Source: a virus. From it: 64,000 bases of DNA. The stretch lies in IMG/VR virus record IMGVR_UViG_3300017783_000001. The stretch is one strand, 5' to 3'. Both the position numbers and the translations under genes were made by a program. The notes below the pieces were generated by a model. That model was not told the DNA's origin, did no database searches, and worked only from the letters and a program-made list of their open reading frames with translations. Below are positions 10,570 through 40,272 of this stretch, in pieces; the first letter of the stretch is position 1; each line of letters begins with the position of its first letter.

Positions 10570-11326
10570 AACTTATATACTCCACATTCTTACATTCTTC
10601 CCATTCAGGAATATTAACATTTAACATATTCTTTCTATTTACTTTATAAAACTTTACCCAATGATTTAACTTGAATAGTTTACGCCATTGTAATATCCAA
10701 TCTTGTAAATAATATTGACTAGGGTGTGTATCAGATTTGTAAAAAGGTTGACCAGCATATATGTTATTAAATTTACTTGACATACTATATATGTCGTGTC
10801 CTATTAGATACACTTCTTTCAATTCTGCTATTTCTTTACAAGCAACATAACCACTTGCAGGACCTGTTGCCCAAGTTAATGTATCACCGTCATCAACTAA
10901 ATCTGTAAAACTTTTTACTTTATCAGCTGTCAACCAACTAACATTGACCATATTCTTTCCTGTTTCTTTATCATTATATCCGTGTAAAACAAAACTATCA
11001 GAACCTACTCTTTGATTTTCTATAAGTAAACCTGAATTTCTAATTGCTCTTATATGTCTATACCCTGGAAAGAAACCTGATAACATAGTCTCATAATGAG
11101 CGTGTGGTATAGGTGCCCAATCTCTAAAATAACATTTTGCAGTATAAGAATAACCTGATTGATAAATGCTGTGCATAACAGGATGGTCCATCGCAACTAA
11201 AATATCAGGTGCAAAATCTTTGTATAGATTATTACAACCTATTATAACACCTCTTCCTTTTATAGTAGAAAATTTAAAACCTTTTCTACTTTGACCATTA
11301 CCTATAAGAAACGCTCTATTTGCCAT
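10532..11326 (-). CDS. Maf/DUF115-like putative glycosyltransferase
   Basis: AFLIGNGQS...IGCNNLY...PDILVAMD...EVYLIGHD motifs typical of the Maf/CstII/DUF115 Rossmann-like group. Confidence 0.55.
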   Translation of the reverse strand: MANRAFLIGNGQSRKGFKFSTIKGRGVIIGCNNLYKDFAPDILVAMDHPVMHSIYQSGYSYTAKCYFRDWAPIPHAHYETMLSGFFPGYRHIRAIRNSGLLIENQRVGSDSFVLHGYNDKETGKNMVNVSWLTADKVKSFTDLVDDGDTLTWATGPASGYVACKEIAELKEVYLIGHDIYSMSSKFNNIYAGQPFYKSDTHPSQYYLQDWILQWRKLFKLNHWVKFYKVNRKNMLNVNIPEWEECKNVEYISYERMETQTRSIS

Positions 11327-12287
11327 ATTTAAAACTATAAGTATCTAACAGATACCTATACCCATTACAACCATCTTTTAAAGTTTTAACATATCTATAG
11401 TGTTCAGTTAAACATCTACCTAGATATTCACACTTACGACATATATCAGAAATATTTTGTTCTTTCTCTTTTTGACACCATACTTCGTAATCAGCAAAAC
11501 TATCAAGTTCTAAAAAATACTCATTATCATCTTTATCAAAGTCTAGTACAGCAAATTTACCATTAGGTGTAATGTACAAGTGGTCATCGCTATATGCGTT
11601 ATAATTACTATTAAGAGAATCTTTTATGTTCAATTCATTAATAAATGGAAATGGATTGTTCTTAAATGTTTCTTTACTTTGTGTGTTTTTATATTCTAAT
11701 ATCACTCTTAATATAAAATCTTCAAAGTCAGCGTGTGTCGCACCTAATTGATTTGCTTGATTTGTACTATAAGGTTTAATTTCAAATCCTTTAAAGTTTT
11801 TATTATCTATTGATAGATGGTTCATCTTTGTCAAAATATCTTGTGGCGATTTTTTCATAACTTCTGGAGTTGCCAACATTAAAACAGAAAATTCAACAGG
11901 TAAAGTTTTCATATTTTCAAAAACTTGTTCGTGTTTCTCTCTAGTATCCATATCATAACTAACACTTATAAAATATTCAGGATTCATAAACTCACTTCTT
12001 ACCATAGATAAGTTTGTGTTTATATTAATCTTGTCTTTATAATATATCTTAATTGCATTAGTAATCTTTTCTAGGTTATCTTCTTTTAATACACCTATCT
12101 CACCACCATACAAATCAATGTGTTCTATATCTCTATGAGTTTGTACTTCATTTAATAGTTCACTTAACTTAAAGTGGTCAATACATTTTTTATCACCTAA
12201 TTGGTCAGGTGTAAGATAACACCAATGACATCTAAAATTACAGAAATAAGATGGATTGATTGATAGATTAATCTTCGGCTTCGTCAT
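11316..12287 (-). CDS. Radical SAM enzyme 4 with a degenerate SPASM-like C-terminus
   Basis: CNFRCHWC (CxxxCxxC), YGGE motif and C-terminal CRKCEYLGRCLTEH...C. Confidence 0.85.
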   Translation of the reverse strand: MTKPKINLSINPSYFCNFRCHWCYLTPDQLGDKKCIDHFKLSELLNEVQTHRDIEHIDLYGGEIGVLKEDNLEKITNAIKIYYKDKININTNLSMVRSEFMNPEYFISVSYDMDTREKHEQVFENMKTLPVEFSVLMLATPEVMKKSPQDILTKMNHLSIDNKNFKGFEIKPYSTNQANQLGATHADFEDFILRVILEYKNTQSKETFKNNPFPFINELNIKDSLNSNYNAYSDDHLYITPNGKFAVLDFDKDDNEYFLELDSFADYEVWCQKEKEQNISDICRKCEYLGRCLTEHYRYVKTLKDGCNGYRYLLDTYSFKYGK

Positions 12288-12843
12288 AGTTCAATTCCTC
12301 AATGGACTTTAATAACATTTTTTTACATCTACTAAACATTAGTTTTCTAATAATATTTTGTTTCCAGTTTCTATCACTTTGAAATAATCCTATCCAGAGA
12401 TAGTTATACTCCATATGATTTCTCATAAACAATCTATTGAGTTCAGCATACTCTTGTTCTTTTTCTAAAGTGTAATCTACTCTTTCTAATAGTTCACCTT
12501 TAACATTTGCTTGTTGTTCTTTTATCTTGTACGATATACCTGGTATGTGCATTGTCTTTGCAATTATATCGTTTATTCTATCTAACTTGTTTTTACCACC
12601 TAGTGCCAACATTATATAAAATGGCATATGGTGTTTCTTTGAGAAGTGTCCTTCACAACTTGATATTGGAAGAAAACCTTTTCTAATAAATTCGTGGCAA
12701 TGAGGTAGTACACCTTTCTCAACTTCATTGTCAAAATCTTTATCAAATGGACTTACTGATAGAGCTAGATACCCATTTGAATAATCTAAATCTTGTTCTT
12801 GCGAGGCGTGTATTCTGCCGTTTGGAAATATTTTATTTTTCAT
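12268..12843 (-). CDS. Hypothetical protein with a TYW3-like SSCxGH motif
   Basis: VEKGVLP...KGFLPISSCEGH resembles the TYW3 N-terminal motif; function uncertain. Confidence 0.45.
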   Translation of the reverse strand: MKNKIFPNGRIHASQEQDLDYSNGYLALSVSPFDKDFDNEVEKGVLPHCHEFIRKGFLPISSCEGHFSKKHHMPFYIMLALGGKNKLDRINDIIAKTMHIPGISYKIKEQQANVKGELLERVDYTLEKEQEYAELNRLFMRNHMEYNYLWIGLFQSDRNWKQNIIRKLMFSRCKKMLLKSIEELNYDEAED

Positions 12844-13385
12844 ATATTATAATCAAAACATCCTACAATTCGTTCATTGTTAATTAATTTAAATTTGCCA
12901 ACTCTATGTTCCCATACTTTACTATGATTTAAAAATATTAAATCATTCTTACCTGGATATAACCAACAAGACAATTCTTTTGTTTGTTTGTTTCTTACTG
13001 ATAAAGAACCACCTTGTTCTTTATTACAGGCACTTGTAAAGTACATTAATATAGCAATGTTTGCTCCTTCTTTCAAATCATTGTGCCATAGTGTACTTTC
13101 ATAGTCTACACCATTGACAATTTGTGGTCGTCCGTGTAATTTGTATTTACTAGACACCTTACTAATATATTTATCACCCAAATATTTGTGGGTTGTGGCG
13201 AGTGCGTGTGCAACCTTTTCAGTATGAACAGCAACCGTATACTCTTTATCTGATTCTACAAAAGGTATTTGTACACCTTCAAAGAATTTAAATGGTGTAA
13301 GGTCTTTATGTGGCCATACTCCATTTATTATCAGATTTGATAAATCGTGTTCACCCCTCACTTGTCCATCTCCATTTAATTGCAA
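12840..13385 (-). CDS. 2OG-Fe(II) oxygenase
   Basis: WHND...LMYF...GGSL...WEHRV...R: HxD...H triad plus Arg. Confidence 0.75.
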   Translation of the reverse strand: MQLNGDGQVRGEHDLSNLIINGVWPHKDLTPFKFFEGVQIPFVESDKEYTVAVHTEKVAHALATTHKYLGDKYISKVSSKYKLHGRPQIVNGVDYESTLWHNDLKEGANIAILMYFTSACNKEQGGSLSVRNKQTKELSCWLYPGKNDLIFLNHSKVWEHRVGKFKLINNERIVGCFDYNI

Positions 13386-13803
13386 GTCTTGTCTTTTCTC
13401 CCCAATAAGGCATTGCCCTATGTATTAAATGAGAGTCCATAATAAACATTGCGTTTTGTCTAAAGTCATAAGTCTCGTCTTCAACTTGTATCTGACCACC
13501 TTTGTTTAAATCACCTTGTAGATATAATATAATAGTCTTTTCTCCTTCTACATCGCTGTCAGTATGAAAACCTATTATATTTTTATTTTCATCTTTACTA
13601 TTTACAGAAATAACATATCTAACAATACAATGTTTTAATCCAGGTACATTTAATTTACAAATACTATCTGCCCACTTCCAATCATCTGGTAATTTCTTGT
13701 GAACATTCTTATCATAGATAGGATATTCTTTTCCTAGATTACCTAATTCACCAATCATATGATTAAGTTCTAAACTTGTCATTACATTATGTTTAACTTG
13801 CAT
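13351..13803 (-). CDS. 2OG-Fe(II) oxygenase
   Basis: FHTD...TIILYL...GGQ...IHRA...R. Confidence 0.8.
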   Translation of the reverse strand: MQVKHNVMTSLELNHMIGELGNLGKEYPIYDKNVHKKLPDDWKWADSICKLNVPGLKHCIVRYVISVNSKDENKNIIGFHTDSDVEGEKTIILYLQGDLNKGGQIQVEDETYDFRQNAMFIMDSHLIHRAMPYWGEKTRLAIKWRWTSEG

Positions 13804-14887
13804 ATTCTTTCTCGTAAGGTGTCATTTGTATATATGGTTTATTATTTGCGACTAAAATATCGTGTCCTATTCTTTTCATCTTCTCACAATGTTTTTCTAC
13901 AACTCCTGCTTCTTTGTAATCTTTAACGGTCTTTCTACAACCATTACATATATTAAACATAGGACAACTATAACAACTTTTCTTCATTGTAGATAAATTT
14001 AAATCATCTTGTAAAGGTGTAAAAAACTTACCTTTCATTTCTTCTTCAAAGTCTATCTCTTTGTCTTTATCATCACCAAATGCACCACAACTATAGTAGT
14101 CGCCATCTGGTTGTAAACATCTTATACCTTCATCACATTTTCTACTTAACGGACAACTCGTAGCAGTATCATTAATTGCTAACATCATCTGTCTAGTATT
14201 AAACTCCCAAGGCGCTAAACCTGCCTTATAAATCTCTACATACTTCTCATATATATCTGATAACAAAAACGGCTCTTTTTGTTCGCCACTTGCCATTGCA
14301 TAATTTAACTTACATTCTACACCTGTCTTCTCTTCTCTCCAGAAGTTATGTAATGTGCCTTCAGGTATTTTCTGTTCAGACATCTTCTTTGCAAGTTCAA
14401 CATTCTTTATTGCGTTGTGTTCATTCTCTCTTGTAATAACAGATATAAAGTCTGGTCTATAACCACAATGTTCTAACATTGCGTTTGAACACTTCCAAAA
14501 GTCTTCTTCTGTAAATTCTGAATAGTCACCTTTTAATCTACCACCACCATATTGAAAAGAAGTTGTAATACCAACTCTTTCGTTATTAAATAAGTCAACC
14601 CACTTACTAGGTTTCTTATAGAACGGCCACAAGTTTGTTGTTAATGCAAGTGAAGTAGTATATTCTTTTTCATCTAACCAATTAATAATCTTCCAATAGT
14701 AATCAGGTTCCATCATTAATGGATCACCACCGTTTACTATGATTGTTTTTGTTTCTGGGAATCTTTCTAAAAAACGAAATATCTGGTCGTGTTTTAACCA
14801 GTTCTTTTTCTCATCTGTAAGTTGTGTACTAGAGCAAAATGTACATTTGAAATTACAAAGTTCAGTAGGTTTAATTATTAAGTCCAT
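13793..14887 (-). CDS. Radical SAM/SPASM enzyme 3
   Basis: Likely start MDLIIKPTELCNFKCTFC, GGDP motif, SPASM cysteines C...C...GDYYSC...CYSCPMFNICNGC...C. Confidence 0.9.
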   Translation of the reverse strand: MDLIIKPTELCNFKCTFCSSTQLTDEKKNWLKHDQIFRFLERFPETKTIIVNGGDPLMMEPDYYWKIINWLDEKEYTTSLALTTNLWPFYKKPSKWVDLFNNERVGITTSFQYGGGRLKGDYSEFTEEDFWKCSNAMLEHCGYRPDFISVITRENEHNAIKNVELAKKMSEQKIPEGTLHNFWREEKTGVECKLNYAMASGEQKEPFLLSDIYEKYVEIYKAGLAPWEFNTRQMMLAINDTATSCPLSRKCDEGIRCLQPDGDYYSCGAFGDDKDKEIDFEEEMKGKFFTPLQDDLNLSTMKKSCYSCPMFNICNGCRKTVKDYKEAGVVEKHCEKMKRIGHDILVANNKPYIQMTPYEKEYAS

Positions 14888-15471
14888 TTTCCTATCCAAT
14901 CAAATCCTGTATTACATTCTCTATTTCTAATCCAATAATCTTTTAGTTTGCCTTCAATAACTTTGTCAAATCCAAACTGCCACATTATTTCTCTATGATA
15001 TGGTTCTTTTTGTGCTCTCATCTGATTCATTGTTAAGTGTAACCAATCAAAGTAAGTACCAGACGGACATAATATATCTCTACCTTTAAATATGTTTATT
15101 GTATCACACCACATATGTCTAATTAGTTTTCTGTTTTCTGTCATAGGTCTATTCTTCATATATCCTGCGTACTTTAAAGAACCGACTATAATGTACTCAT
15201 CATAGATATGAAACATTCCTACACCCTTAATATAAGTGTTAGGCCTCTTGTTTTGAACCCATTGTCTTTCACCTATTGTCTTTTGTGCAATCTCATATAG
15301 TTCACCATCTTCTTCTTTCTTGCCCAGCCACAAAAACATATGTGCTTGTCTACCATCAATTCTAGGTAGATACGGTTTCTCAACTGGAAAGTTATCTAGT
15401 TGTACTTCTATATGTTTAGGAAAATTATAAGGTAAATTAGTTTGCGATATAGTTTCGCTGTAATCGTACAT
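14878..15471 (-). CDS. Hypothetical protein of the radical SAM cluster
   Basis: Long ORF between rSAM genes. Start taken at MYDYSETIS; the track start is 15510. Confidence 0.6.
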   Translation of the reverse strand: MYDYSETISQTNLPYNFPKHIEVQLDNFPVEKPYLPRIDGRQAHMFLWLGKKEEDGELYEIAQKTIGERQWVQNKRPNTYIKGVGMFHIYDEYIIVGSLKYAGYMKNRPMTENRKLIRHMWCDTINIFKGRDILCPSGTYFDWLHLTMNQMRAQKEPYHREIMWQFGFDKVIEGKLKDYWIRNRECNTGFDWIGKWT

Positions 15472-16489
15472 CTTCAATATATCTGTGCGTAAGTTTGTAA
15501 ACACATTCATCCAACTCCTCCTTATATCTATAATCGTGGTTCATAAAACAGCCAAGTGTACATCTATCTAAAAATTCGCAACTACTACAATTATACTTCT
15601 CTAGGAAAGAGTTTTCTATTATACTATTGTCTCTAGGTTTAATGGGCGACTTGTATTGACTTATATCTTGTTCTTCTTGTACAAGGTTACCACATTGACA
15701 TAATGTACCATCTGCTAATACAAGTTTTGAAACTCTACAACTTGCATAATTCTTTTTGTTAAATATCCAATCTCTAACAGGATGAACATTAGGATATTTG
15801 TCAACACAATGTTTAAAAAACTTTAATAATAGTTCATCACTAGGCATATTAAACTTTGCGTGTTCATCTGGCATATAGTAATCAAAGTAAATATACTTAC
15901 CTTGTTCATACAGATAGTCAAAGTATTCATCGCCTTCATTTAAATAAAAGTTAATATTAGGTCTTGTAAGTAAACAAGAAAAACAGGTTACTTCATCACC
16001 CCAATAATCTACATTAGATTTAAATATTTCAAAGTCTTTTTTATTAAATCTACCTCGTGGGTCATAACTTGTTGTAAGTCTACAAGGTATATCTTCTTCT
16101 CTGGACCATTTGAGTAAGTCCATAATAAGTTCATTACCATCAGGTGATGTAACCAAGTTAGATACCCAATTGATTGAAAATTCTTTATCGTACTTTTGAC
16201 ATATCTTTTGTATGCCTTTTGATAGGAGTTTGTAACCTTCATTTAAACTTCTGTTATAGATTGCAGGTGCAAAGACTTCACCACCCATAATATTAAAGGT
16301 GACCTTCATATACATTTCTTTTGAAACAAATTTTTCTATAGAGGGAAGTTTATCAACCACATTATCAACACCAATTTTATTGTCGTGGTTCTGCCAACAG
16401 AAATTACAACGCAAATTACAAAATTCAAATAAATGAATAGTGTACTCTTGCTCTGGGTCTCTTTTGGGGTCTATTAAAAACTCTCGCAT
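15437..16489 (-). CDS. Radical SAM/SPASM enzyme 2
   Basis: CNLRCNFC, MGGE, SPASM C...DGTLCQC...CSSCEFLDRCTLGC...C; SD AGGAG. Confidence 0.9.
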   Translation of the reverse strand: MREFLIDPKRDPEQEYTIHLFEFCNLRCNFCWQNHDNKIGVDNVVDKLPSIEKFVSKEMYMKVTFNIMGGEVFAPAIYNRSLNEGYKLLSKGIQKICQKYDKEFSINWVSNLVTSPDGNELIMDLLKWSREEDIPCRLTTSYDPRGRFNKKDFEIFKSNVDYWGDEVTCFSCLLTRPNINFYLNEGDEYFDYLYEQGKYIYFDYYMPDEHAKFNMPSDELLLKFFKHCVDKYPNVHPVRDWIFNKKNYASCRVSKLVLADGTLCQCGNLVQEEQDISQYKSPIKPRDNSIIENSFLEKYNCSSCEFLDRCTLGCFMNHDYRYKEELDECVYKLTHRYIEDVRLQRNYIAN

Positions 16490-16497
16490 TTTAACTC

Positions 16498-17613
16498 CTA
16501 TGAGTTAGCGAATAGTCTGTATTTTCCTAATGTGTCTGTATCGTTAGATTTCTTTAATGAGAATAGATATTGTAAAAATGTATAATTAATATTTCCAATA
16601 TCAAATCTAGGAATAAAAGATAGACTAGATGGACTATTCACCGTTTCAGTTATAATTGTATCAAAATCGTTTGAAGATAAACTTGAATCACAAGCCTTAT
16701 CTAAATGATTCATAAAGTAATCAGGATCCGGAGAGTTTTGGAAATCATATAGGTCTTTAATTAAAGTTTTCAATGCAGTTTGTTTGTCTGTTGAAAGACC
16801 GTCAATGTTTGCAATATTTACAGCGCCGACATTTGCAGTAGGTTTTTGTGTAAATACATCTTCGTCAGCAAATGGTGCTAATGGTGTAATACCTGAAAAT
16901 GGATTGTCATTATTCAAATCAACATCAGCACTAGTATAACCTAATGCAGTTTGTTGATTAGTATTTAAAAGATTTAGAGCAGCACCTTCTCTACTATCTG
17001 TTAACACTTCTTTATAAAATCTTTTTAAGAATAAATGCCAAGTAGACAATAAGTTTGCTTGGTGAGTATCAGCACCAGCAAAGTATTCGCCTAATAATAA
17101 TTCAATTGAGAAATTTAAATTAAGAGCTTTAATTCTATCTAAATCAAGTGTAGGTAATACATTAAAATATCCTGCAACATCTCCTAGACCAGCATTAATT
17201 TTTGTTAATGCAAGTGTGTGAGTTGGTTGCAATTGTGTATTTGCAATAATTTTTTCGTGGTGTAAATGAATATCTAAAAACTTCTGTACTGCTGTTTGGT
17301 CAGCAAATGGTAACATAGTTTTTAACCAGGTTACTGATAAGTTTAAGTATGCTTCACTATCGCAGTAAATAATAACTTTAGTACCTAGAGTACCTTGTTT
17401 AGATTTTACATCTTCAAAGAAACCAGTTAAGTCATCATACTTACCTGCCATTTCATTAACATTGTGAGAGTAGTTAATTAAAGTTCCTCTATATGTAGTT
17501 TGTAGTTCCTGGTGCATTTCATTACCAGTTTCTGCTGATATTACATATCTGTTTGTATGACAATCTATTGAATCGTCAAACGCTAAATAAACTTTATTAA
17601 ATAAGTGTAGCAT
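16498..17613 (-). CDS. Hypothetical protein of the radical SAM cluster
   Basis: 371 aa, translationally coupled, no recognisable catalytic motif. Confidence 0.65.
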   Translation of the reverse strand: MLHLFNKVYLAFDDSIDCHTNRYVISAETGNEMHQELQTTYRGTLINYSHNVNEMAGKYDDLTGFFEDVKSKQGTLGTKVIIYCDSEAYLNLSVTWLKTMLPFADQTAVQKFLDIHLHHEKIIANTQLQPTHTLALTKINAGLGDVAGYFNVLPTLDLDRIKALNLNFSIELLLGEYFAGADTHQANLLSTWHLFLKRFYKEVLTDSREGAALNLLNTNQQTALGYTSADVDLNNDNPFSGITPLAPFADEDVFTQKPTANVGAVNIANIDGLSTDKQTALKTLIKDLYDFQNSPDPDYFMNHLDKACDSSLSSNDFDTIITETVNSPSSLSFIPRFDIGNINYTFLQYLFSLKKSNDTDTLGKYRLFANS

Positions 17614-17614
17614 A

Positions 17615-18280
17615 TTATTTTTTCTCTTTACTTTTTAAATATTCTTTAGTATCAAATTTACCTTCGGCAACTGCCCAAGTTAATAAGAATAATGGATTAC
17701 TTTCTGTTGCCCAATATTCAAATAAAGATTTACCTTTAAACATATAATCTTTAAAGTACTTTGTATAGTTCTTAACAATACTTTCTTTTGGTATTTGATA
17801 ATAACTATAAAATTCTTTGTGTTTTAATAATGAAACAAAGTTAATACCTCTAACATCTTCTGTCTCGTCTTTAGGATAACTTTCAACAAATTCATTAAAA
17901 GCACCTTCACCAACAATTGACATATTATATAATGGTAAACTTTCTAATTTACTTTCCCATTTGTCAAGTATCTCTTTATTCTTTTCTATAACACTCTTAT
18001 ATTTATCTGTCTTTGTCAACCCTTTGTGTTCAAATAATACAGCGATTACTTCTTTTTCTAATTTAGGTATATTTACTAACATTTGTGTGTTAAGATATTC
18101 ACTAATTAGTTCTTCGTCCATATTCTTAATATCACAAGGTATATCTAAATTACTTAAATATGTTAAAAACTGAGCACCTTTTAATGTGCTGTTTTCGTAA
18201 TCAATAAGATAACTTTCTGTCTTATCTTCAAAGTATTTTTTTAAGTCTTTCAATTCAATTGGTACAATACTATTAATCAT
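17615..18280 (-). CDS. Hypothetical protein directly downstream of the putative precursor
   Basis: 221 aa, TAATG-coupled to the CHSS-repeat gene. Confidence 0.65.
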   Translation of the reverse strand: MINSIVPIELKDLKKYFEDKTESYLIDYENSTLKGAQFLTYLSNLDIPCDIKNMDEELISEYLNTQMLVNIPKLEKEVIAVLFEHKGLTKTDKYKSVIEKNKEILDKWESKLESLPLYNMSIVGEGAFNEFVESYPKDETEDVRGINFVSLLKHKEFYSYYQIPKESIVKNYTKYFKDYMFKGKSLFEYWATESNPLFLLTWAVAEGKFDTKEYLKSKEKK

Positions 18281-19053
18281 TATCTTCTTCCTCTACTTCC
18301 GTGGCAACTACTATGACAACTACTATGACATATAGTTTTTGATAGTGTGTAAGTGTTACCTCTTTCAGTATTATATGCGTTTGCAAGTGTTGTCATAAAT
18401 CCTTCTAAATTTGTATCTTCAATAACTTGACCTGGTTGTAAACTACTAGGTTGTGATGGATTTAATGTTGTTCTTTGTGCAGTTGTTAAGTGTGCAATTT
18501 GTGTATCTGAATATTGTGTTCCTGCACCTGTCATACTAACTATAGCGTATGTATTTTTAATATTAGTATAATTATTCATTTCTGCTTTTAGTGTACCGTA
18601 AATATTGTTTGCAGAAATTAATGAACCTGCATTACCAATATTACCACCTGTTATACCAATAGATACAGCACTTACTTCTTGTAAAGTGTTAACCGTTCCT
18701 ACAGCACCTGAAGAAGTGCCTGATATAATATCGTTTTGTATAAATCCTGTTTGACCTGCACCTGGATTAATGTTTCTTAATTTTAATACATTGCTTGAAT
18801 AACTAACTACGATACCAGTTGTTGCAGTTATAGTAGCGTTAACCGTTTCACCTGCTGAATAAGTTCCGGTTACACCTGTTAGTGTTAATTCAAATCCGTC
18901 AACAACACCACCAAAATCAGAAGCAGAAAATGAAGAGTGTCCTGGTAGATTATCAGTACCCCATACAATATGGTGGTCTGCTATATCAGTTACCAGTTCC
19001 TCAAATCTATCAACTATGTTTTGACTTGTTATCGGGTTGTTTAAAGTTACCAT
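18280..19053 (-). CDS. Virion-like protein with C-terminal CHSSCHSSCHGSRGRR; putative radical SAM modification substrate
   Basis: 257 aa, Gly/Ser/Thr-rich like the structural proteins. Contains the baseplate-type GETV..T...G.V...F...D.I.G.SSGA module and a Cys/His repeat tail. Confidence 0.75.
   Translation of the reverse strand: MVTLNNPITSQNIVDRFEELVTDIADHHIVWGTDNLPGHSSFSASDFGGVVDGFELTLTGVTGTYSAGETVNATITATTGIVVSYSSNVLKLRNINPGAGQTGFIQNDIISGTSSGAVGTVNTLQEVSAVSIGITGGNIGNAGSLISANNIYGTLKAEMNNYTNIKNTYAIVSMTGAGTQYSDTQIAHLTTAQRTTLNPSQPSSLQPGQVIEDTNLEGFMTTLANAYNTERGNTYTLSKTICHSSCHSSCHGSRGRR
18283..18330 (-). repeat. 12-nt tandem repeat encoding (CHxS)3-RGRR
   Basis: TGTCATAGTAGT TGTCATAGTAGT TGCCACGGAAGT AGAGGAAGAAGA immediately before the stop. 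Confidence 0.9.
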
Positions 19054-20078
19054 TTCGCCTCACTTTGTTTTTTTAAGTGCTTCATAAGAGATTTAGGAGC
19101 ACCACATATATTATCTTGCCACGCTAATTGGTGACAATCGCCACCACAATACTTAAATACTTCACATTCAAAGCATTTAGGATTTCTTGCTACTTCACAA
19201 GCAACATTTTCTAATCTCTTAGGACTATTTATAAGTTCTACTAGAGGGTCATCTATAGTTCCAAAATTAAACTCTGGAGCTGCGTTAGGACAACCACCTA
19301 TTGTGCCAGTTGCGTTAAGTGTAAATAGTTTTTGTTCACAATCTCGGCAAAATGTACCATCTTTTGTTGAACCAGTCTCAAATTTTGAATAAATTGTCTC
19401 AAAAAACTCATTATCAAACCAATCTCTTGTATTATATTCAATAGATTGTTCGTGCATTTTCAAAAACCACTTGTCTTGTTCTATATTACTAGGAAATATC
19501 TCTGGATGTAAGTTTGCATTACCATTTCCAGTCAATCTTTCTAGTGCCATTTCTTTTACACCCAAATCTCTAACCCATTTTAGTAATTCAATAGGTTCAA
19601 TTCTAATTGTGTCTTTGGTTACTGATATGAATAGTTTAATATCAACACCTTCACTAATTAAAGTCTCTACATTCTTACGCCATAAGTTTGCTTGCTTCTC
19701 ATTTGCAAATCTTATGTTAGGATCCCAACTAGTTCCACATCTATTTTTAAGTGGACCTTTGATAAAGTCAATATGTTCTTGTTTTAGTTTAAATGTTAAG
19801 TTAGAAGTTATGCCCATTGATTGATGTTCCCACAAATTCTTTGTGGCGTCATAGACATATTGCATTTCAGACACAGGAACTAAAAACGGTTCGCCACCGT
19901 GTAGTTCTAAATGTGCTGTATCGTGTTTTTGAAAATTATATTTTCTGAAATTTTTAAGCCACTTGATAGTCTTATCTGGATTCCAGTAGACTTTAGGACC
20001 ATTAGTACCTGAAGTAAAGCAATGTTTACAATTTAGATTACAGGTCTCGGTTGTTTTAAGATAAAACATCCAATTCAT
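19047..20078 (-). CDS. Radical SAM/SPASM enzyme 1
   Basis: Likely start MNWMFYLKTTETCNLNCKHC (TAATG-coupled), HGGEP motif, full SPASM CRDC...GGC...CFECEVFKYCGGDC...C. Confidence 0.92.
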   Translation of the reverse strand: MNWMFYLKTTETCNLNCKHCFTSGTNGPKVYWNPDKTIKWLKNFRKYNFQKHDTAHLELHGGEPFLVPVSEMQYVYDATKNLWEHQSMGITSNLTFKLKQEHIDFIKGPLKNRCGTSWDPNIRFANEKQANLWRKNVETLISEGVDIKLFISVTKDTIRIEPIELLKWVRDLGVKEMALERLTGNGNANLHPEIFPSNIEQDKWFLKMHEQSIEYNTRDWFDNEFFETIYSKFETGSTKDGTFCRDCEQKLFTLNATGTIGGCPNAAPEFNFGTIDDPLVELINSPKRLENVACEVARNPKCFECEVFKYCGGDCHQLAWQDNICGAPKSLMKHLKKQSEAKW

Positions 20079-20557
20079 TATACGACCCCTATACTTAACC
20101 CCCAAGTATCTGCTTCGTTTTCAACATAATGTTTTACACCTTCTTCTATGAATATACCTTCGTCATCATATACTGGTTTAATAACACCATCTAAAGATAC
20201 TTTCTTTTTGCCTTTGACAACATATAAGTAAACATCTTTATCATCTTTATGTTCTTTAAAACTAATACCTGGTTTCTGATTTACAAATAAATGAATATCT
20301 TGTCTTTTCTTTCCTGTGATATTCAATACTACTTCGTCTAAAACTTCTTTTAACCAGGCTACATCTTCTAAGCCTTCCACCTTAATAGTTTTAAATCTAT
20401 CGTATTCTCTTAACCATTCGCCATAAGACATATGTTCTTTAACCTCACGGTCAAGTCCTTCGTCATCTATATAAAATAGTTGTCTTGCTTCGTATCTAGT
20501 GTGTGATTGGATTTCTTCTTTTAATCTGGAAATCCATAAAGTTGTATGTTCGTCCAT
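20078..20557 (-). CDS. JmjC/cupin-type Fe(II) oxygenase (ROX/YcfD-like)
   Basis: SFKEHKDDKDVYLYVVKGKK...GVKHYV: HxD...H with a GxK motif; SD AGGAG. Confidence 0.7.
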   Translation of the reverse strand: MDEHTTLWISRLKEEIQSHTRYEARQLFYIDDEGLDREVKEHMSYGEWLREYDRFKTIKVEGLEDVAWLKEVLDEVVLNITGKKRQDIHLFVNQKPGISFKEHKDDKDVYLYVVKGKKKVSLDGVIKPVYDDEGIFIEEGVKHYVENEADTWGLSIGVV

Positions 20558-20568
20558 AATATATCTCC

Positions 20569-21870
20569 TTATTTACCAACGATTGCTTCTATAACTCTCT
20601 CTTCTATAGTATCGTCATTGACTAAACTTTTTCCAATTAATGCACCGTTTCTCGGTTCTGCTTCAGCTCTAGCACATCCTGCAATACTACAAGATACTAA
20701 CATATCGCCTTTTCTTACAGGACCACATACTCTTACTGGTACTCTTCCTGTCATTGCAACCGTAGCGGTTACACCTTCTAAACTGCCGTTCATAATAAAG
20801 GCAGGTTTTTCTGATTGAACACCAATAACTTTTGTACAATGATTTTCAGTACATATAGTTACCTCAGCAACACCACCTATACATAAGACGGTACCTACTG
20901 GATATTCTTTATCAGATTTATACTTTTCTGCCAAGTCAGCGTATCTCGCTTGCGTAGCAGTTGTTGTTAAAATATTTGTTGATGGATTGTAATATAAACT
21001 TGAATCTGCTTTTAGATTGTTTGAACCTGAAGTACTATCAGCAAAAGTTAAATATCTTGTTGCGTTTTGAGTTGATTCAGAAGTTATATCTACAGCATTT
21101 GCTAATGAAGCAGTACCTGTAATAGTATTTGCAACTAAAGTGTCAACCGTTAATGTTGCAGAAGCTAATCCTGAAAGTTTTGCAAGTGTAACCGTGTTAT
21201 CAGCAATTTGTAAAGTACCAATAGCATTATCTGCTATCATAGTACTTGTAACCGTATTTGTATCACCTGTAGTAATAACGGTACCACTAGCGTTAGGTAA
21301 TGTGATTACATTATCTTGTGTTGGTTCATCTACTCTTAAAGTTGTTTCAAATGAGTCTGCTGTTAGTCCTTCAAATAACATTGAAGCACCATTGATTGTT
21401 AATCCTGCACCAACAAGTGTACCACCGGCAGATATACCACCTGTTGTATTTAATTGTTCGTTACCAAAATCAATTGTACCACTTGCAGAAGTAATTGAAG
21501 AAGTACCAATCTGTATGTTTGCAATCTCAGCTGTTGTTGCAACATCAATTGTTGATAGACCAGTTAAGTTTGTATTTAATCCGATTGTTAATGTATCTGG
21601 TGATGATACCGTAGTTGTAAGACCTGTACCACTTGATACGGTTAATGTATTACCAGAGGCAATCGCCTGAACATTTGTACCGTCTGTTAATGTAAAACCA
21701 GCAGCTGCAATCGCAATACTATTGATTTCGTTAACAGCACCAATTACAGAAGTCGCAGATAAAGTAGGATCCAGAGTGGCAATATCACCAAAGTCTGAGG
21801 ACGCTAATGCGTTAAATTCTATTCTTAATTTATCTAAACTATCTGTACTATTTACCTGTCTTACAGCCAT
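20569..21870 (-). CDS. Tail fibre/spike with a C-terminal intramolecular-chaperone autocleavage (peptidase G2-like) domain
   Basis: ARYADLAEKY...VIGV.SEKPAFIMN...VAMTGRVPVRV.GPVRKGDMLV...GALIGKSL. Confidence 0.75.
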   Translation of the reverse strand: MAVRQVNSTDSLDKLRIEFNALASSDFGDIATLDPTLSATSVIGAVNEINSIAIAAAGFTLTDGTNVQAIASGNTLTVSSGTGLTTTVSSPDTLTIGLNTNLTGLSTIDVATTAEIANIQIGTSSITSASGTIDFGNEQLNTTGGISAGGTLVGAGLTINGASMLFEGLTADSFETTLRVDEPTQDNVITLPNASGTVITTGDTNTVTSTMIADNAIGTLQIADNTVTLAKLSGLASATLTVDTLVANTITGTASLANAVDITSESTQNATRYLTFADSTSGSNNLKADSSLYYNPSTNILTTTATQARYADLAEKYKSDKEYPVGTVLCIGGVAEVTICTENHCTKVIGVQSEKPAFIMNGSLEGVTATVAMTGRVPVRVCGPVRKGDMLVSCSIAGCARAEAEPRNGALIGKSLVNDDTIEERVIEAIVGK

Positions 21871-38391: not shown

Positions 38392-38688
38392 TTATGCAAA
38401 TGGTGTGTAACCTTGTTCGGCAGCTGTAGTATCATCTTCTGATATTATAGTTTTAACTTCTGGACAATAATGTTTCATCATACTTTCAACTCCTTGTTTT
38501 AAAGTAAGTTGAGACATTGCACACCCAGCACAACTTCCTGCCATTAATAACTTTAATGTGCCATCTTCATCAAACGAAATAAACTCAATCTTACCATTGT
38601 GAGCTGCAACACTAGGTGCTACTTTATCATCTAAATGAAATTTAATTTTTCTAATTGTTTCTTCGTGTGTTTCAGTTGTAGTTGTCAT
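38392..38688 (-). CDS. nfuA: NifU/NfuA C-terminal-domain Fe-S carrier
   Basis: V.P.VA.H.G.IEF...L.M.GSCAGC.MS.LTLKQGVE. Confidence 0.88.
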   Translation of the reverse strand: MTTTTETHEETIRKIKFHLDDKVAPSVAAHNGKIEFISFDEDGTLKLLMAGSCAGCAMSQLTLKQGVESMMKHYCPEVKTIISEDDTTAAEQGYTPFA

Positions 38689-38873
38689 AAAAATTTTCCT
38701 ATAAATCTTAAAAAATACATTATTGGTATAACCATAAGTGCTGGTCCTATACCTTGGTCAAAAAACATTAAGACAACAGCACCTGCTGTAAATAGATAAA
38801 ATGCAATAGTCTTCCAATGAAATATTATTGCAAGTAAACCAAGACCTATAATTTTTAGATATTCTTTTATCAT
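38685..38873 (-). CDS. Small membrane protein
   Basis: 62 aa, hydrophobic, ATGA-coupled. Confidence 0.6.
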   Translation of the reverse strand: MIKEYLKIIGLGLLAIIFHWKTIAFYLFTAGAVVLMFFDQGIGPALMVIPIMYFLRFIGKFL

Positions 38874-39667
38874 TGAGTTGGGTCTTTCATCATCATATCT
38901 GGTATCTTATCATCTTGTAAATCTAATTTAACAGGATTGATATTTGCTTGTGGTTGATTATGTTCTAGTACATAGTTACCACTTATACTAATTCTTTCGT
39001 ATTGTTTCCAATAAGGTGCTACTTGATGTTCTAATGCAGCTGGGAAAACAAACATCAAACCTTTATATGGTTTAACAGCAAAACTATTCATTTGTAATTG
39101 AGTTATCTTTTCACCATAATGAAATACTAGTTGACCTGCTGAATTGGCGTTAGTTGTAGGTACGCCTTCTGTAAATATCTTATCATCTATATCACCAAAC
39201 ACAACAAAACTAAAAAGACCACCGTGGTCGTGTAAAGGATTAAAATCACCTGCTTGTTGAAAGTTAATCCATAGTTGTTGTAATCGTAATGCACCCATAC
39301 CACCAGATTGTCCCATCATCATTTTTGATATGTTAGGCCAACCTTCACCATAGTTAGATTGTAGTATTTCAAAAAATTCAAATACTTTTTGTACGATTGC
39401 TTGGTCTGCTTGATTTCTAATTTTGTTATTACCGTTATTAAACGGATAAAGAACGCTAGTTCCTTGCTTCATATTGCCAGCAAGTTGATGTCTATGGTCT
39501 AATTTTTTATCGTCTCTTGTACGCTGACCTTCTTCAATCAACATATCAACAATCTTTTCGTCTAGTTCACAACGATAGACTGGTGGACCAAATGGATATA
39601 ATACTTCGCCATTAATAGACGAGTGAACCATTTGTGGTAATACGGTTTTATCTCTATACTTTGTCAT
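38870..39667 (-). CDS. 2OG-Fe(II) oxygenase
   Basis: WINFQQAGDFNPLHDH...FPAALEHQV.P...RISISGN; start MTKY with SD AAGGA. Confidence 0.85.
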   Translation of the reverse strand: MTKYRDKTVLPQMVHSSINGEVLYPFGPPVYRCELDEKIVDMLIEEGQRTRDDKKLDHRHQLAGNMKQGTSVLYPFNNGNNKIRNQADQAIVQKVFEFFEILQSNYGEGWPNISKMMMGQSGGMGALRLQQLWINFQQAGDFNPLHDHGGLFSFVVFGDIDDKIFTEGVPTTNANSAGQLVFHYGEKITQLQMNSFAVKPYKGLMFVFPAALEHQVAPYWKQYERISISGNYVLEHNQPQANINPVKLDLQDDKIPDMMMKDPTQ

Positions 39668-39687
39668 TCTGTTTTCCTTACACACTT

Positions 39688-39945: not shown

Positions 39946-40272
39946 TTATACTCCAAAACTTTCTCCACAACCACAACTACTTGTTGCGTTGGGATTTTTT
40001 AATTCTAAAAATGACCCAAATATCTCCTTACGATATTCTATAGTCATACCTGCTAACATTAATATGCTAGACTTATCAACTAATAATGTAAAGTTATCGT
40101 GTAAGATAACCTCATCATTGTTGTCTGCTTCATCTTCAAACTTCCAGTCGTACTTAAAACCAGCACAACCACCACCTTTAACTTCTAAACGAACATATTT
40201 TTTGCTATGTTCTTTTGCTAAAGATTGTAAATGTGTTATTGCGTTATCTGTTAAGTTTATTAAATTACTCAT
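39946..40272 (-). CDS. iscA: Fe-S cluster assembly A-type carrier (IscA/HesB)
   Basis: VRLEVKGGGCAGFKY...NPNATSSCGCGESF. Confidence 0.93.
   Translation of the reverse strand: MSNLINLTDNAITHLQSLAKEHSKKYVRLEVKGGGCAGFKYDWKFEDEADNNDEVILHDNFTLLVDKSSILMLAGMTIEYRKEIFGSFLELKNPNATSSCGCGESFGV

Follow-up and report, generated by a model that had tools for sequence, protein, structure and literature searches.

The window analysed here is a stretch of 64,000 nucleotides of viral DNA (from the 99-kb IMG/VR record IMGVR_UViG_3300017783_000001) with 34% GC and a T4-like myophage gene set that includes the baseplate wedge, homologues of gp5, gp25 and gp53, a 2033-aa structural protein and fibre genes. Its source is probably a phage of the pelagimyophage type, a group in which 'radical SAM gene cassettes' have been recorded without explanation in the host-recognition cluster (PMC7029224). 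On the minus strand, at 18280..19053, lies the gene of a 257-aa protein, here called the CH-tail protein, for which a family-specific α/β core with an inserted baseplate-type β-barrel (residues 52-129) is predicted. The translated ORF terminates in TICHSSCHSSCHGSRGRR, followed by the stop codon at 18280-18282 (-). Its last 16 codons (18283..18330, minus strand) encode the C-terminal tail CHSSCHSSCHGSRGRR, the segment that defines the family and is presumed to be modified. The initial annotation had placed the only cysteines of the protein in these 16 residues, spaced CxxxCxxxC and each followed by H-x-S. Translation of the ORF confirms this, as the protein contains three Cys, all of them in the tail and in exactly this arrangement. 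A six-frame scan detected no second motif of the tail type in the window.

The CH-tail gene is embedded in a cassette of genes on the same strand. Immediately upstream, and adjoining the CH gene in nearly all loci, is rSAM1 (19047..20078, minus strand), a radical SAM (rSAM) enzyme with a CxxxCxxC motif and the full set of SPASM cysteines, whose gene overlaps the start of the CH gene by 7 nt. The likely start of rSAM1 is the ATG of MNWMF, which overlaps the stop codon of a cupin-fold protein (20078..20557, minus strand; Pfam Cupin_2) that is encoded ahead of rSAM1, occurs in 65/80 loci and keeps this position in the cultured phages RSF1 and Atu_ph07. Ahead of the cassette lies p433 (20569..21870, minus strand), a fibre-like protein of phrog tail-fibre families present in 65/80 loci. 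Downstream of the CH gene, again on the minus strand, follows p221 (17615..18280; phrog_20767), the most conserved accessory gene, encountered in 77 of 80 loci as well as in RSF1, Atu_ph07 and all variant loci; its AlphaFold2 (AF2) model reaches a pLDDT of 88, and a fold search with it returned no convincing PDB match. The conserved accessory protein p371 (16498..17613, minus strand; 69/80 loci) matched nothing in Pfam, NCBIfam or the Atlas, and ESM Atlas look-ups of both p221 and p371 gave no usable match. The minus strand continues with the SPASM-like rSAM2 (15437..16489), p210 (14878..15510), an accessory gene in a subset of loci (34/80), the SPASM enzyme rSAM3 (13793..14899), the 2OG-Fe(II) oxygenase-like p181 (12840..13385; 50/80 loci), which scores just below the cut-off of Pfam 2OG-FeII_Oxy_3, and rSAM4 (11316..12287). 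The four rSAM genes are paralogues and belong to phrog_1802. Elsewhere in the window, Fe-S assembly genes of the NifU-like (PF01106) and IscA (PF01521) types lie at 38392-38688 (-) and 39946-40272 (-), and a further 2OG-Fe(II) oxygenase at 38870-39685. The two assembly genes might provide the four rSAMs with clusters; among the window ORFs scanned, no IscU gene could be confirmed.

The association between tail and radical SAM genes was followed in both directions. Among viral loci fetched through the tail, an adjacent rSAM gene lies directly upstream in 80 of 80, and 62 preserve the order rSAM1-CH-p221-p371-rSAM2-rSAM3-rSAM4 with four orthologous groups of rSAMs, the remaining 18 being cut by contig ends. 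Starting from rSAM1 instead, a tail gene is located downstream in 76 of 80 loci, that is, in all 76 informative ones, since in the remaining four the contig stops less than about 250 nt from rSAM1. The 80 loci were taken as the best out of 282 and so represent the closer rSAM1 relatives. The initial annotation was to be abandoned if the motif occurred mostly in genomes without rSAM neighbours. The linkage turned out to be strict both ways and across diverse phages, which supports its proposal that the tail belongs with rSAM/SPASM enzymes. Still, linkage within tightly packed phage operons is no proof of an enzyme-substrate relation.

Several loci extend the cassette. One locus that appeared to lack an rSAM (L090) could be discarded as an exception, as a divergent rSAM with the motif CDHGCLGC follows two tandem CH genes there. 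These small CH-tail genes (137 and 140 aa; L090:9195-11205) come after a 2859-aa fibre gene, and the divergent rSAM escapes the cassette HMM. A Gram-positive-associated version of the cassette is found on a 208 kb contig binned as Gemella sp. (L091:5657-11299), where the tail reads CHSSCHSNCHHR and three of the four rSAM genes are closest to rSAM1. An additional B12-binding (class B) radical SAM of 540-635 aa is present in some cassettes (L176:14090-15997, L181:5732-7357 and L184:13679-15301), and some contain one or two further rSAM-like genes (L183:6058-8203, L181:13365-14375).

To describe the family, two independent protein searches were combined, yielding 275 cluster representatives at 90% identity and 274 at 50%. 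Tail statistics refer to 260 unique relatives of at least 130 aa and residue counts to the 235 canonical members. The end CHxxCHxxCHxxRxRR is present in 235 of the 260, so that absence of the motif from homologues, the other finding that was to count against the initial annotation, is not what the family displays. In the 235 canonical tails no variation is seen at R13, R15 and R16 or at the Cys and His of any repeat, and Ser occupies the fourth position of repeats 1-3 in 96%, 87% and 94%, respectively. Val or Ile precedes the first Cys in 213/235, giving the consensus [VI]-CHxS-CHx[SN]-CHxS-RxRR. Cysteines outside the tail are absent from 180 of the 235 members and tolerated in the other 55. 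The body of the protein has diverged to identities of 24-47%, about 30%, among relatives, and besides the tail a single body segment is well kept, the N-terminal MxxLxNPIxxQNIVDRF...WGTN. Of the non-canonical relatives, about ten stem from chimeric or truncated assemblies, and the others are genuine variants that have two or four repeats, a small insertion or no RxRR. In the longer members P0284, P0173, P0286 and P0285 the canonical tail is kept throughout; fused forms carry a Gly-rich PF21722 domain ahead of a complete CH domain or, alternatively, a 300-aa insertion inside it.

Conservation of the tail resides in the peptide. Among 65 distinct DNA versions its codons vary freely at synonymous sites: Ser is encoded by AGY and TCN, Arg by AGR and CGN, and both Cys codons and both His codons are used. 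This points to selection on the peptide and not on the DNA, and it rules out a recombination site or an RNA element as the reason for the conservation. The pattern search suggested in the initial annotation was run in degenerate form on viral and prokaryotic sequence, and it recovered relatives with the rSAM cassette in their neighbourhoods: 163 stretches matched in IMG/VR, 116 of them relatives, and 158 stretches in 596 Gb of prokaryote genomes (185,579 genomes), among which 7 are relatives, all on MAG contigs bearing the same cassette. By its sequence distribution, the tail marks a large, phage-only family. As tblastn queries against the phage collection, the 257-aa protein and a 188-aa relative returned no record, not even RSF1 or Atu_ph07, which have the tail; the body has diverged too far, and the tail offers little sequence, of low complexity. 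Whole-protein searches therefore make the family look less widespread than it is, and they are a poorer probe than the tail pattern or rSAM1.

An AF2 model of the CH-tail protein built from the family alignment has a pLDDT of 88.8. The α/β core comprises residues 1-51 and 130-241, and a search with its fold gave no convincing PDB match. In fold, the inserted β-barrel (residues 52-129) is similar to domains that decorate baseplate proteins of phages and structural proteins of cyanophages: it superimposes on 9f4a with a Z-score of 7.7 and an rmsd of 2.1 over 68 residues, and it also matches BFVD entries and the window's own 854-aa baseplate protein. The last 16 residues are modelled at low confidence (pLDDT 66 and 53), with a short helix predicted at 244-247, and they probably form a free, flexible and accessible tail.

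Expression of the CH-tail protein appears to be set apart from that of the enzyme encoded upstream. A T4-type late-promoter-like box, TATAAATA, is located on the minus strand at 19226..19233, within the rSAM1 gene, and the CH start codon follows 173 nt downstream of it. Such a box occurs within 500 nt upstream of the CH gene in 62 of 75 loci, in 45 of them at 175-225 nt. It is spelled by the codons xxT-ATA-AAT-AGT of a conserved (L/V/I)-I-N-S in rSAM1, and the choice of codons is one-sided, with Ile as ATA 33 times versus ATT once and Ser as AGY 47 times versus TCN never, unlike in the tail, where TCN codons for Ser are common. This codon bias suggests an internal late promoter that would lift the CH protein above the upstream enzyme.

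Cultured phages offer a view of the same cassette in other genomes. A tblastn search with rSAM1 retrieved 15 jumbo phage records, including the Ralstonia phages RSL2, RSF1, FLC4 and RsoM3USA, the Burkholderia phages FLC6, FLC8 and S13, and Agrobacterium Atu_ph07, Sinorhizobium Phosso and Pseudomonas pPa_SNUABM_DT01. In the phiKZ-like RSF1 the order is cupin ORF069, rSAM ORF070, ORF071, then three more rSAMs and a 2OG oxygenase; ORF071 has 186 aa and the C-terminal end TVCHSSCHSSCHGSRGRR. In Atu_ph07, gp172 and rSAM gp171 are followed by gp170, a 296-aa protein with the C-terminal end DFCHSSCHASCHNSRSRR, by the p221 homologue gp169 and by three rSAMs. A different rSAM cluster adjoins virion genes in Ralstonia PhiRP12 and PhiRP31 (PMC5468394, supplementary tables), consisting of a 537-aa rSAM, an anSME-like protein of 360 aa, a MoaA-like protein of 419 aa and an MgoB-like protein (PMC5468394), and may be an analogous maturation system for another substrate.

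For Atu_ph07 a virion proteome has been published, and it lists 'Gp 170, hypothetical protein, 31.89 kDa' (PMC6102473, Supplementary Table S5), the mass obtained when the homologue is translated. With 8 unique peptides and 35% coverage, gp170 was detected across gel slices 1-9, with its maximum in the top slice 1. The other proteins of that slice have masses of 75-139 kDa, and those of about 30 kDa have their maximum in slices 7-8 (PMC6102473 Table S5). The family member is thus a virion protein that runs far above monomer size. The loading buffer as described contained no reductant (PMC6102473), and disulfides or an SDS-stable oligomer could account for the migration. Absent from the virion list are the rSAMs gp165, gp168 and gp171 as well as gp169 and gp172 (PMC6102473 Table S5), from which it follows that the enzymes are not packaged. 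For the 257-aa protein of the window, a place in the virion is likewise suggested by analogy with gp170, in a context of flanking baseplate genes, late-promoter box and baseplate-type barrel.

All four rSAMs have the CxxxCxxC SAM-cluster motif inside the first 30 residues, conserved across 57-64 orthologues each, which leaves no room for an RRE. They differ in their additional cysteines. rSAM1 has 8 further invariant Cys in SPASM pattern (Cx9-15Gx4C ... Cx2Cx5Cx3C ... C) and passes the SPASM domain model TIGR04085 (33.2 bits, cut-off 27); rSAM3, with 9 further conserved Cys, falls just below it at 25.3 bits, and rSAM2, with 5 further conserved Cys and 2 partly conserved ones, likewise stays just under the cut-off at 19.8 bits. 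rSAM4 has only four further conserved Cys, a number that points to what is probably a single auxiliary cluster. The best full-length similarities of rSAM1, among them the peptide and protein maturases DynA, anSME and PapB, are weak (DynA, anSME, PapB, YhhB and HxsB), all far under the equivalog cut-offs, and its closest relatives among solved sequences are 8vpo, CteB and anSME. Judged by sequence, the four rSAMs form a separate SPASM subfamily. With maturase similarities this far below the family cut-offs, the chemistry is not readable from homology.

Variant loci reveal how tail and enzymes change together. rSAM1 and rSAM3 are present in every complete variant locus, whereas rSAM2 and rSAM4 co-vary with the RxRR end. 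L172 has four CH repeats and ends in GDGPGDGGGV, L176 ends in CHGSL; both are without RxRR, and both contain rSAM1 and rSAM3 only, accompanied by p221 and p371 or by other proteins. In a tree of rSAM1, L176 is sister (support 97/73) to L181, which has RxRR and all four rSAMs, and L172 sits elsewhere on a long branch, making two separate losses likely. All four rSAMs are also kept in L183 and L184, which have two CH units and RxRR. The co-variation comes from two loci without RxRR and from the flanks as fetched, beyond which further rSAM genes could lie; it suggests that rSAM2 and rSAM4 go with the RxRR end, a pattern expected if the tail is an enzyme substrate. The initial annotation had considered RGRR as a recognition element, an idea that gains from the contrast between L172 and L176, which have neither RxRR nor rSAM2 and rSAM4, and the RxRR-bearing L181, L183 and L184 with their complete sets. 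Its suggestion that several rSAMs divide the three repeats among them found no support. Loci with 2, 3 and 4 repeats have 4-6, 4-5 and 2 rSAMs, respectively, with three repeats and five rSAMs in the Bdellovibrio-MAG loci, so that rSAM number does not follow repeat number; one rSAM per repeat is at odds with the variant loci, such as two-repeat forms with all four enzymes. For the two-Cys variant L174, the idea that enzyme and substrate had decayed together was likewise dismissed, as CxxxCxxC is intact upstream in frame and the short rSAM1 call is an artefact.

Taken together, the best reading in our view, with a probability of about 0.65, is that a dedicated pathway of several rSAMs matures the flexible tail of a late virion protein. 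The CH gene product would be a late virion protein from the baseplate/tail-fibre cluster of a T4-like marine myophage, and its flexible C-terminal 16-mer the dedicated substrate of a phage-encoded maturation pathway. That pathway would consist of the four paralogous RRE-less rSAMs, three of SPASM type and one with a single auxiliary cluster, together with the cupin, the 2OG oxygenases, p221 and p371, the last two acting as non-virion accessory proteins. rSAM1 and rSAM3 might be the core enzymes that work on the Cys-His repeats, while rSAM2 and rSAM4 might need the RxRR end or act on it. The products could be radical-made crosslinks, either Cys thioethers or His-Xaa-Ser cyclophanes or both, possibly hydroxylated. 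Other candidate chemistry includes oxidation of the last Cys, where C-H-G-S-R approximates the spacing of an anSME target, and hydroxylation by the cupin or the 2OG enzymes. A tail crosslinked in this way may serve in the virion as a rigid, redox-insensitive cationic knot or as a covalent staple.

Three Cys and three His could also simply bind a metal. The tail would then be an unmodified site for Zn, Fe, Cu or Fe-S in an oligomeric virion protein, with the rSAMs acting elsewhere, for example on another structural protein or a small molecule. The invariant repeat residues are indeed Cys and His, the thiols of CxxxCxxxC would share one face of a helix such as the short one predicted at 244-247, the same phage has NifU-like and IscA-like genes, and T4 gp37 and gp12, P2 gpV and lambda gpL are virion proteins that bind Fe, Zn or Fe-S. 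We nevertheless regard an unmodified site as unlikely, as it leaves unexplained both the four rSAM orthologues that travel with the tail through T4-like, phiKZ-like and Atu_ph07-like genomes and the joint loss of RxRR with rSAM2 and rSAM4, and metal ligands are provided neither by the RxRR end nor by the near-invariant Ser. The rSAM linkage and the co-variation with RxRR also count against a staple made by free cysteines, in which disulfides would join subunits or partners once the virion is outside the cell and rSAM chemistry would not involve the tail at all. Such a staple would fit the behaviour of gp170, which peaks in the top slice and spreads over slices 1-9 after heating in SDS with no reductant listed. 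However, it has no need for invariant His, Ser or RxRR, nor for linkage to rSAMs, and extra Cys are tolerated in 55/235 members, so that we give it very little credence.

It is similarly hard to see the protein as a giant classical RiPP precursor from which the 16-mer is released as a bioactive peptide, with the 240-aa body as leader. The core would lie at the extreme C-terminus, as in many RiPPs, and the conserved N-terminal segment could serve as a leader-type recognition sequence. Yet the cassette has no conserved protease or exporter, the body is a well-folded domain according to its AF2 model and bears a baseplate-type barrel insertion, and the gene stands behind a late-promoter box among baseplate genes. 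The presence of the body in virions and its domain architecture, with fusions to Gly-rich structural domains, speak further against release, and we hold this origin to be highly improbable. A more far-reaching idea is that the rSAM/oxygenase set builds a covalent chemical device on the virion, be it a metal-chelating or redox-active Cys/His cofactor or a reactive baseplate group, used in adsorption or envelope penetration, for instance by showing bound iron to a host receptor. We rate this as doubtful; if true, a cofactor-like structure built by enzymes would be known from a phage particle for the first time.

What sets the system apart is that hundreds of phage lineages have kept one 16-residue tail together with a whole pathway. 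They range from abundant T4-like phages of the sea to cultured jumbo phages that infect Ralstonia, Burkholderia, Agrobacterium, Sinorhizobium and Pseudomonas. Maturation by radical SAM/SPASM enzymes has been described for small peptides and for a handful of enzymes, and in the literature we found no described protein of a virus particle that is matured in this way. Searching the literature for the motif, for phage RiPP/SPASM systems and for the cultured phages brought up papers that mention 'radical SAM' genes but name no substrate, and publications on carrier phages count rSAM genes, along with those of the cupin and 2OG types, among accessory or 'antibiotic-like' genes (including PMC7029224). 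If the tail is modified, it would give rSAM enzymology a new class of substrate and probably new chemistry, explain why marine phage genomes contain "radical SAM cassettes" and genes for Fe-S assembly, so far noted without explanation, and add a hitherto unknown step in virion assembly or host recognition. Modification of the tail can be tested directly in the cultured phages.

Comparison with known systems helps to place the phage tail. The His-Xaa-Ser system (HxsA with HxsB and HxsC; TIGR03977-03979) resembles it in that the tail has three C-terminal H-x-S units and several paralogous rSAMs are found in one operon, rSAM1 and rSAM3 being weakly similar to HxsB and HxsC. These similarities remain far from family membership, at 32 bits for rSAM1 against HxsB (cut-off 370) and 30.5 bits for rSAM3 against HxsC (cut-off 267.9), and in an NCBIfam scan the 257-aa protein matched 0 families, the HxsA model included. 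In place of the small bacterial peptide of that system, the phages use a folded virion protein of 180-300 aa as carrier, with an invariant Cys before each His and an RxRR end. The maturase of CXXX-repeat peptides was not among the best 25 of 41 NCBIfam families for rSAM1, nor among the best 25 of 36 for rSAM3. Classical RiPPs differ as well, given the folded carrier of 180-300 aa, the missing RRE and a cassette in which no conserved protease or transporter/exporter was found. The metal-binding His motifs of T4 gp37 and gp12 and of P2 gpV share with the CH-tail protein the repetition of metal-ligand residues in a virion protein of the adsorption apparatus; the phage CH-x-x unit differs by its Cys, by its position in a flexible C-terminal tail and not in the interior of a β-helix, and by the rSAM genes that are always near.

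Closer parallels are offered by maturases of thioethers and sulfatases. The thioether-forming SPASM enzymes of ranthipeptides and SCIFF peptides (CteB or PapB), and QhpD with its substrate QhpC, act on regularly spaced Cys towards the C-terminal side, an arrangement that the phage tail shares, and rSAM1 is weakly similar to CteB and PapB. QhpD makes three thioethers in a protein subunit, QhpC, and not in a peptide. The phage tail departs from these substrates, as it is without the Asp, Glu, Asn or Thr acceptor positions of the known motifs and has an invariant His, and its cassette combines four paralogous enzymes, no RRE and a virion context. The sulfatase maturase anSME, whose target is C/S-x-P/A-x-R, is likewise an RRE-less SPASM enzyme of about 350 aa with CxxxCxxC within 30 residues, and it acts on a Cys of a whole protein, as is presumed for the phage rSAMs. 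rSAM1 aligns over its full length with TIGR03942 (E 8e-11) and with the anSME chains 4k36 and 4k37, at a score of 41.6 bits that lies well under the equivalog cut-off of 349.45. In the last phage repeat, C-H-G-S-R, Cys and Arg have the spacing of the sulfatase target, whereas Gly, Ser or Asn replaces the required Pro/Ala in most tails (C-H-[GSN]-S-R), and the phage system has three repeats, four enzymes and a target without the sulfatase fold. By the curated models, the tail falls outside the Hxs, SCIFF/ranthipeptide and sulfatase families. By analogy, it seems most like a substrate of SPASM maturases carried on a whole protein, as in anSME and the sulfatases or in QhpD and QhpC.
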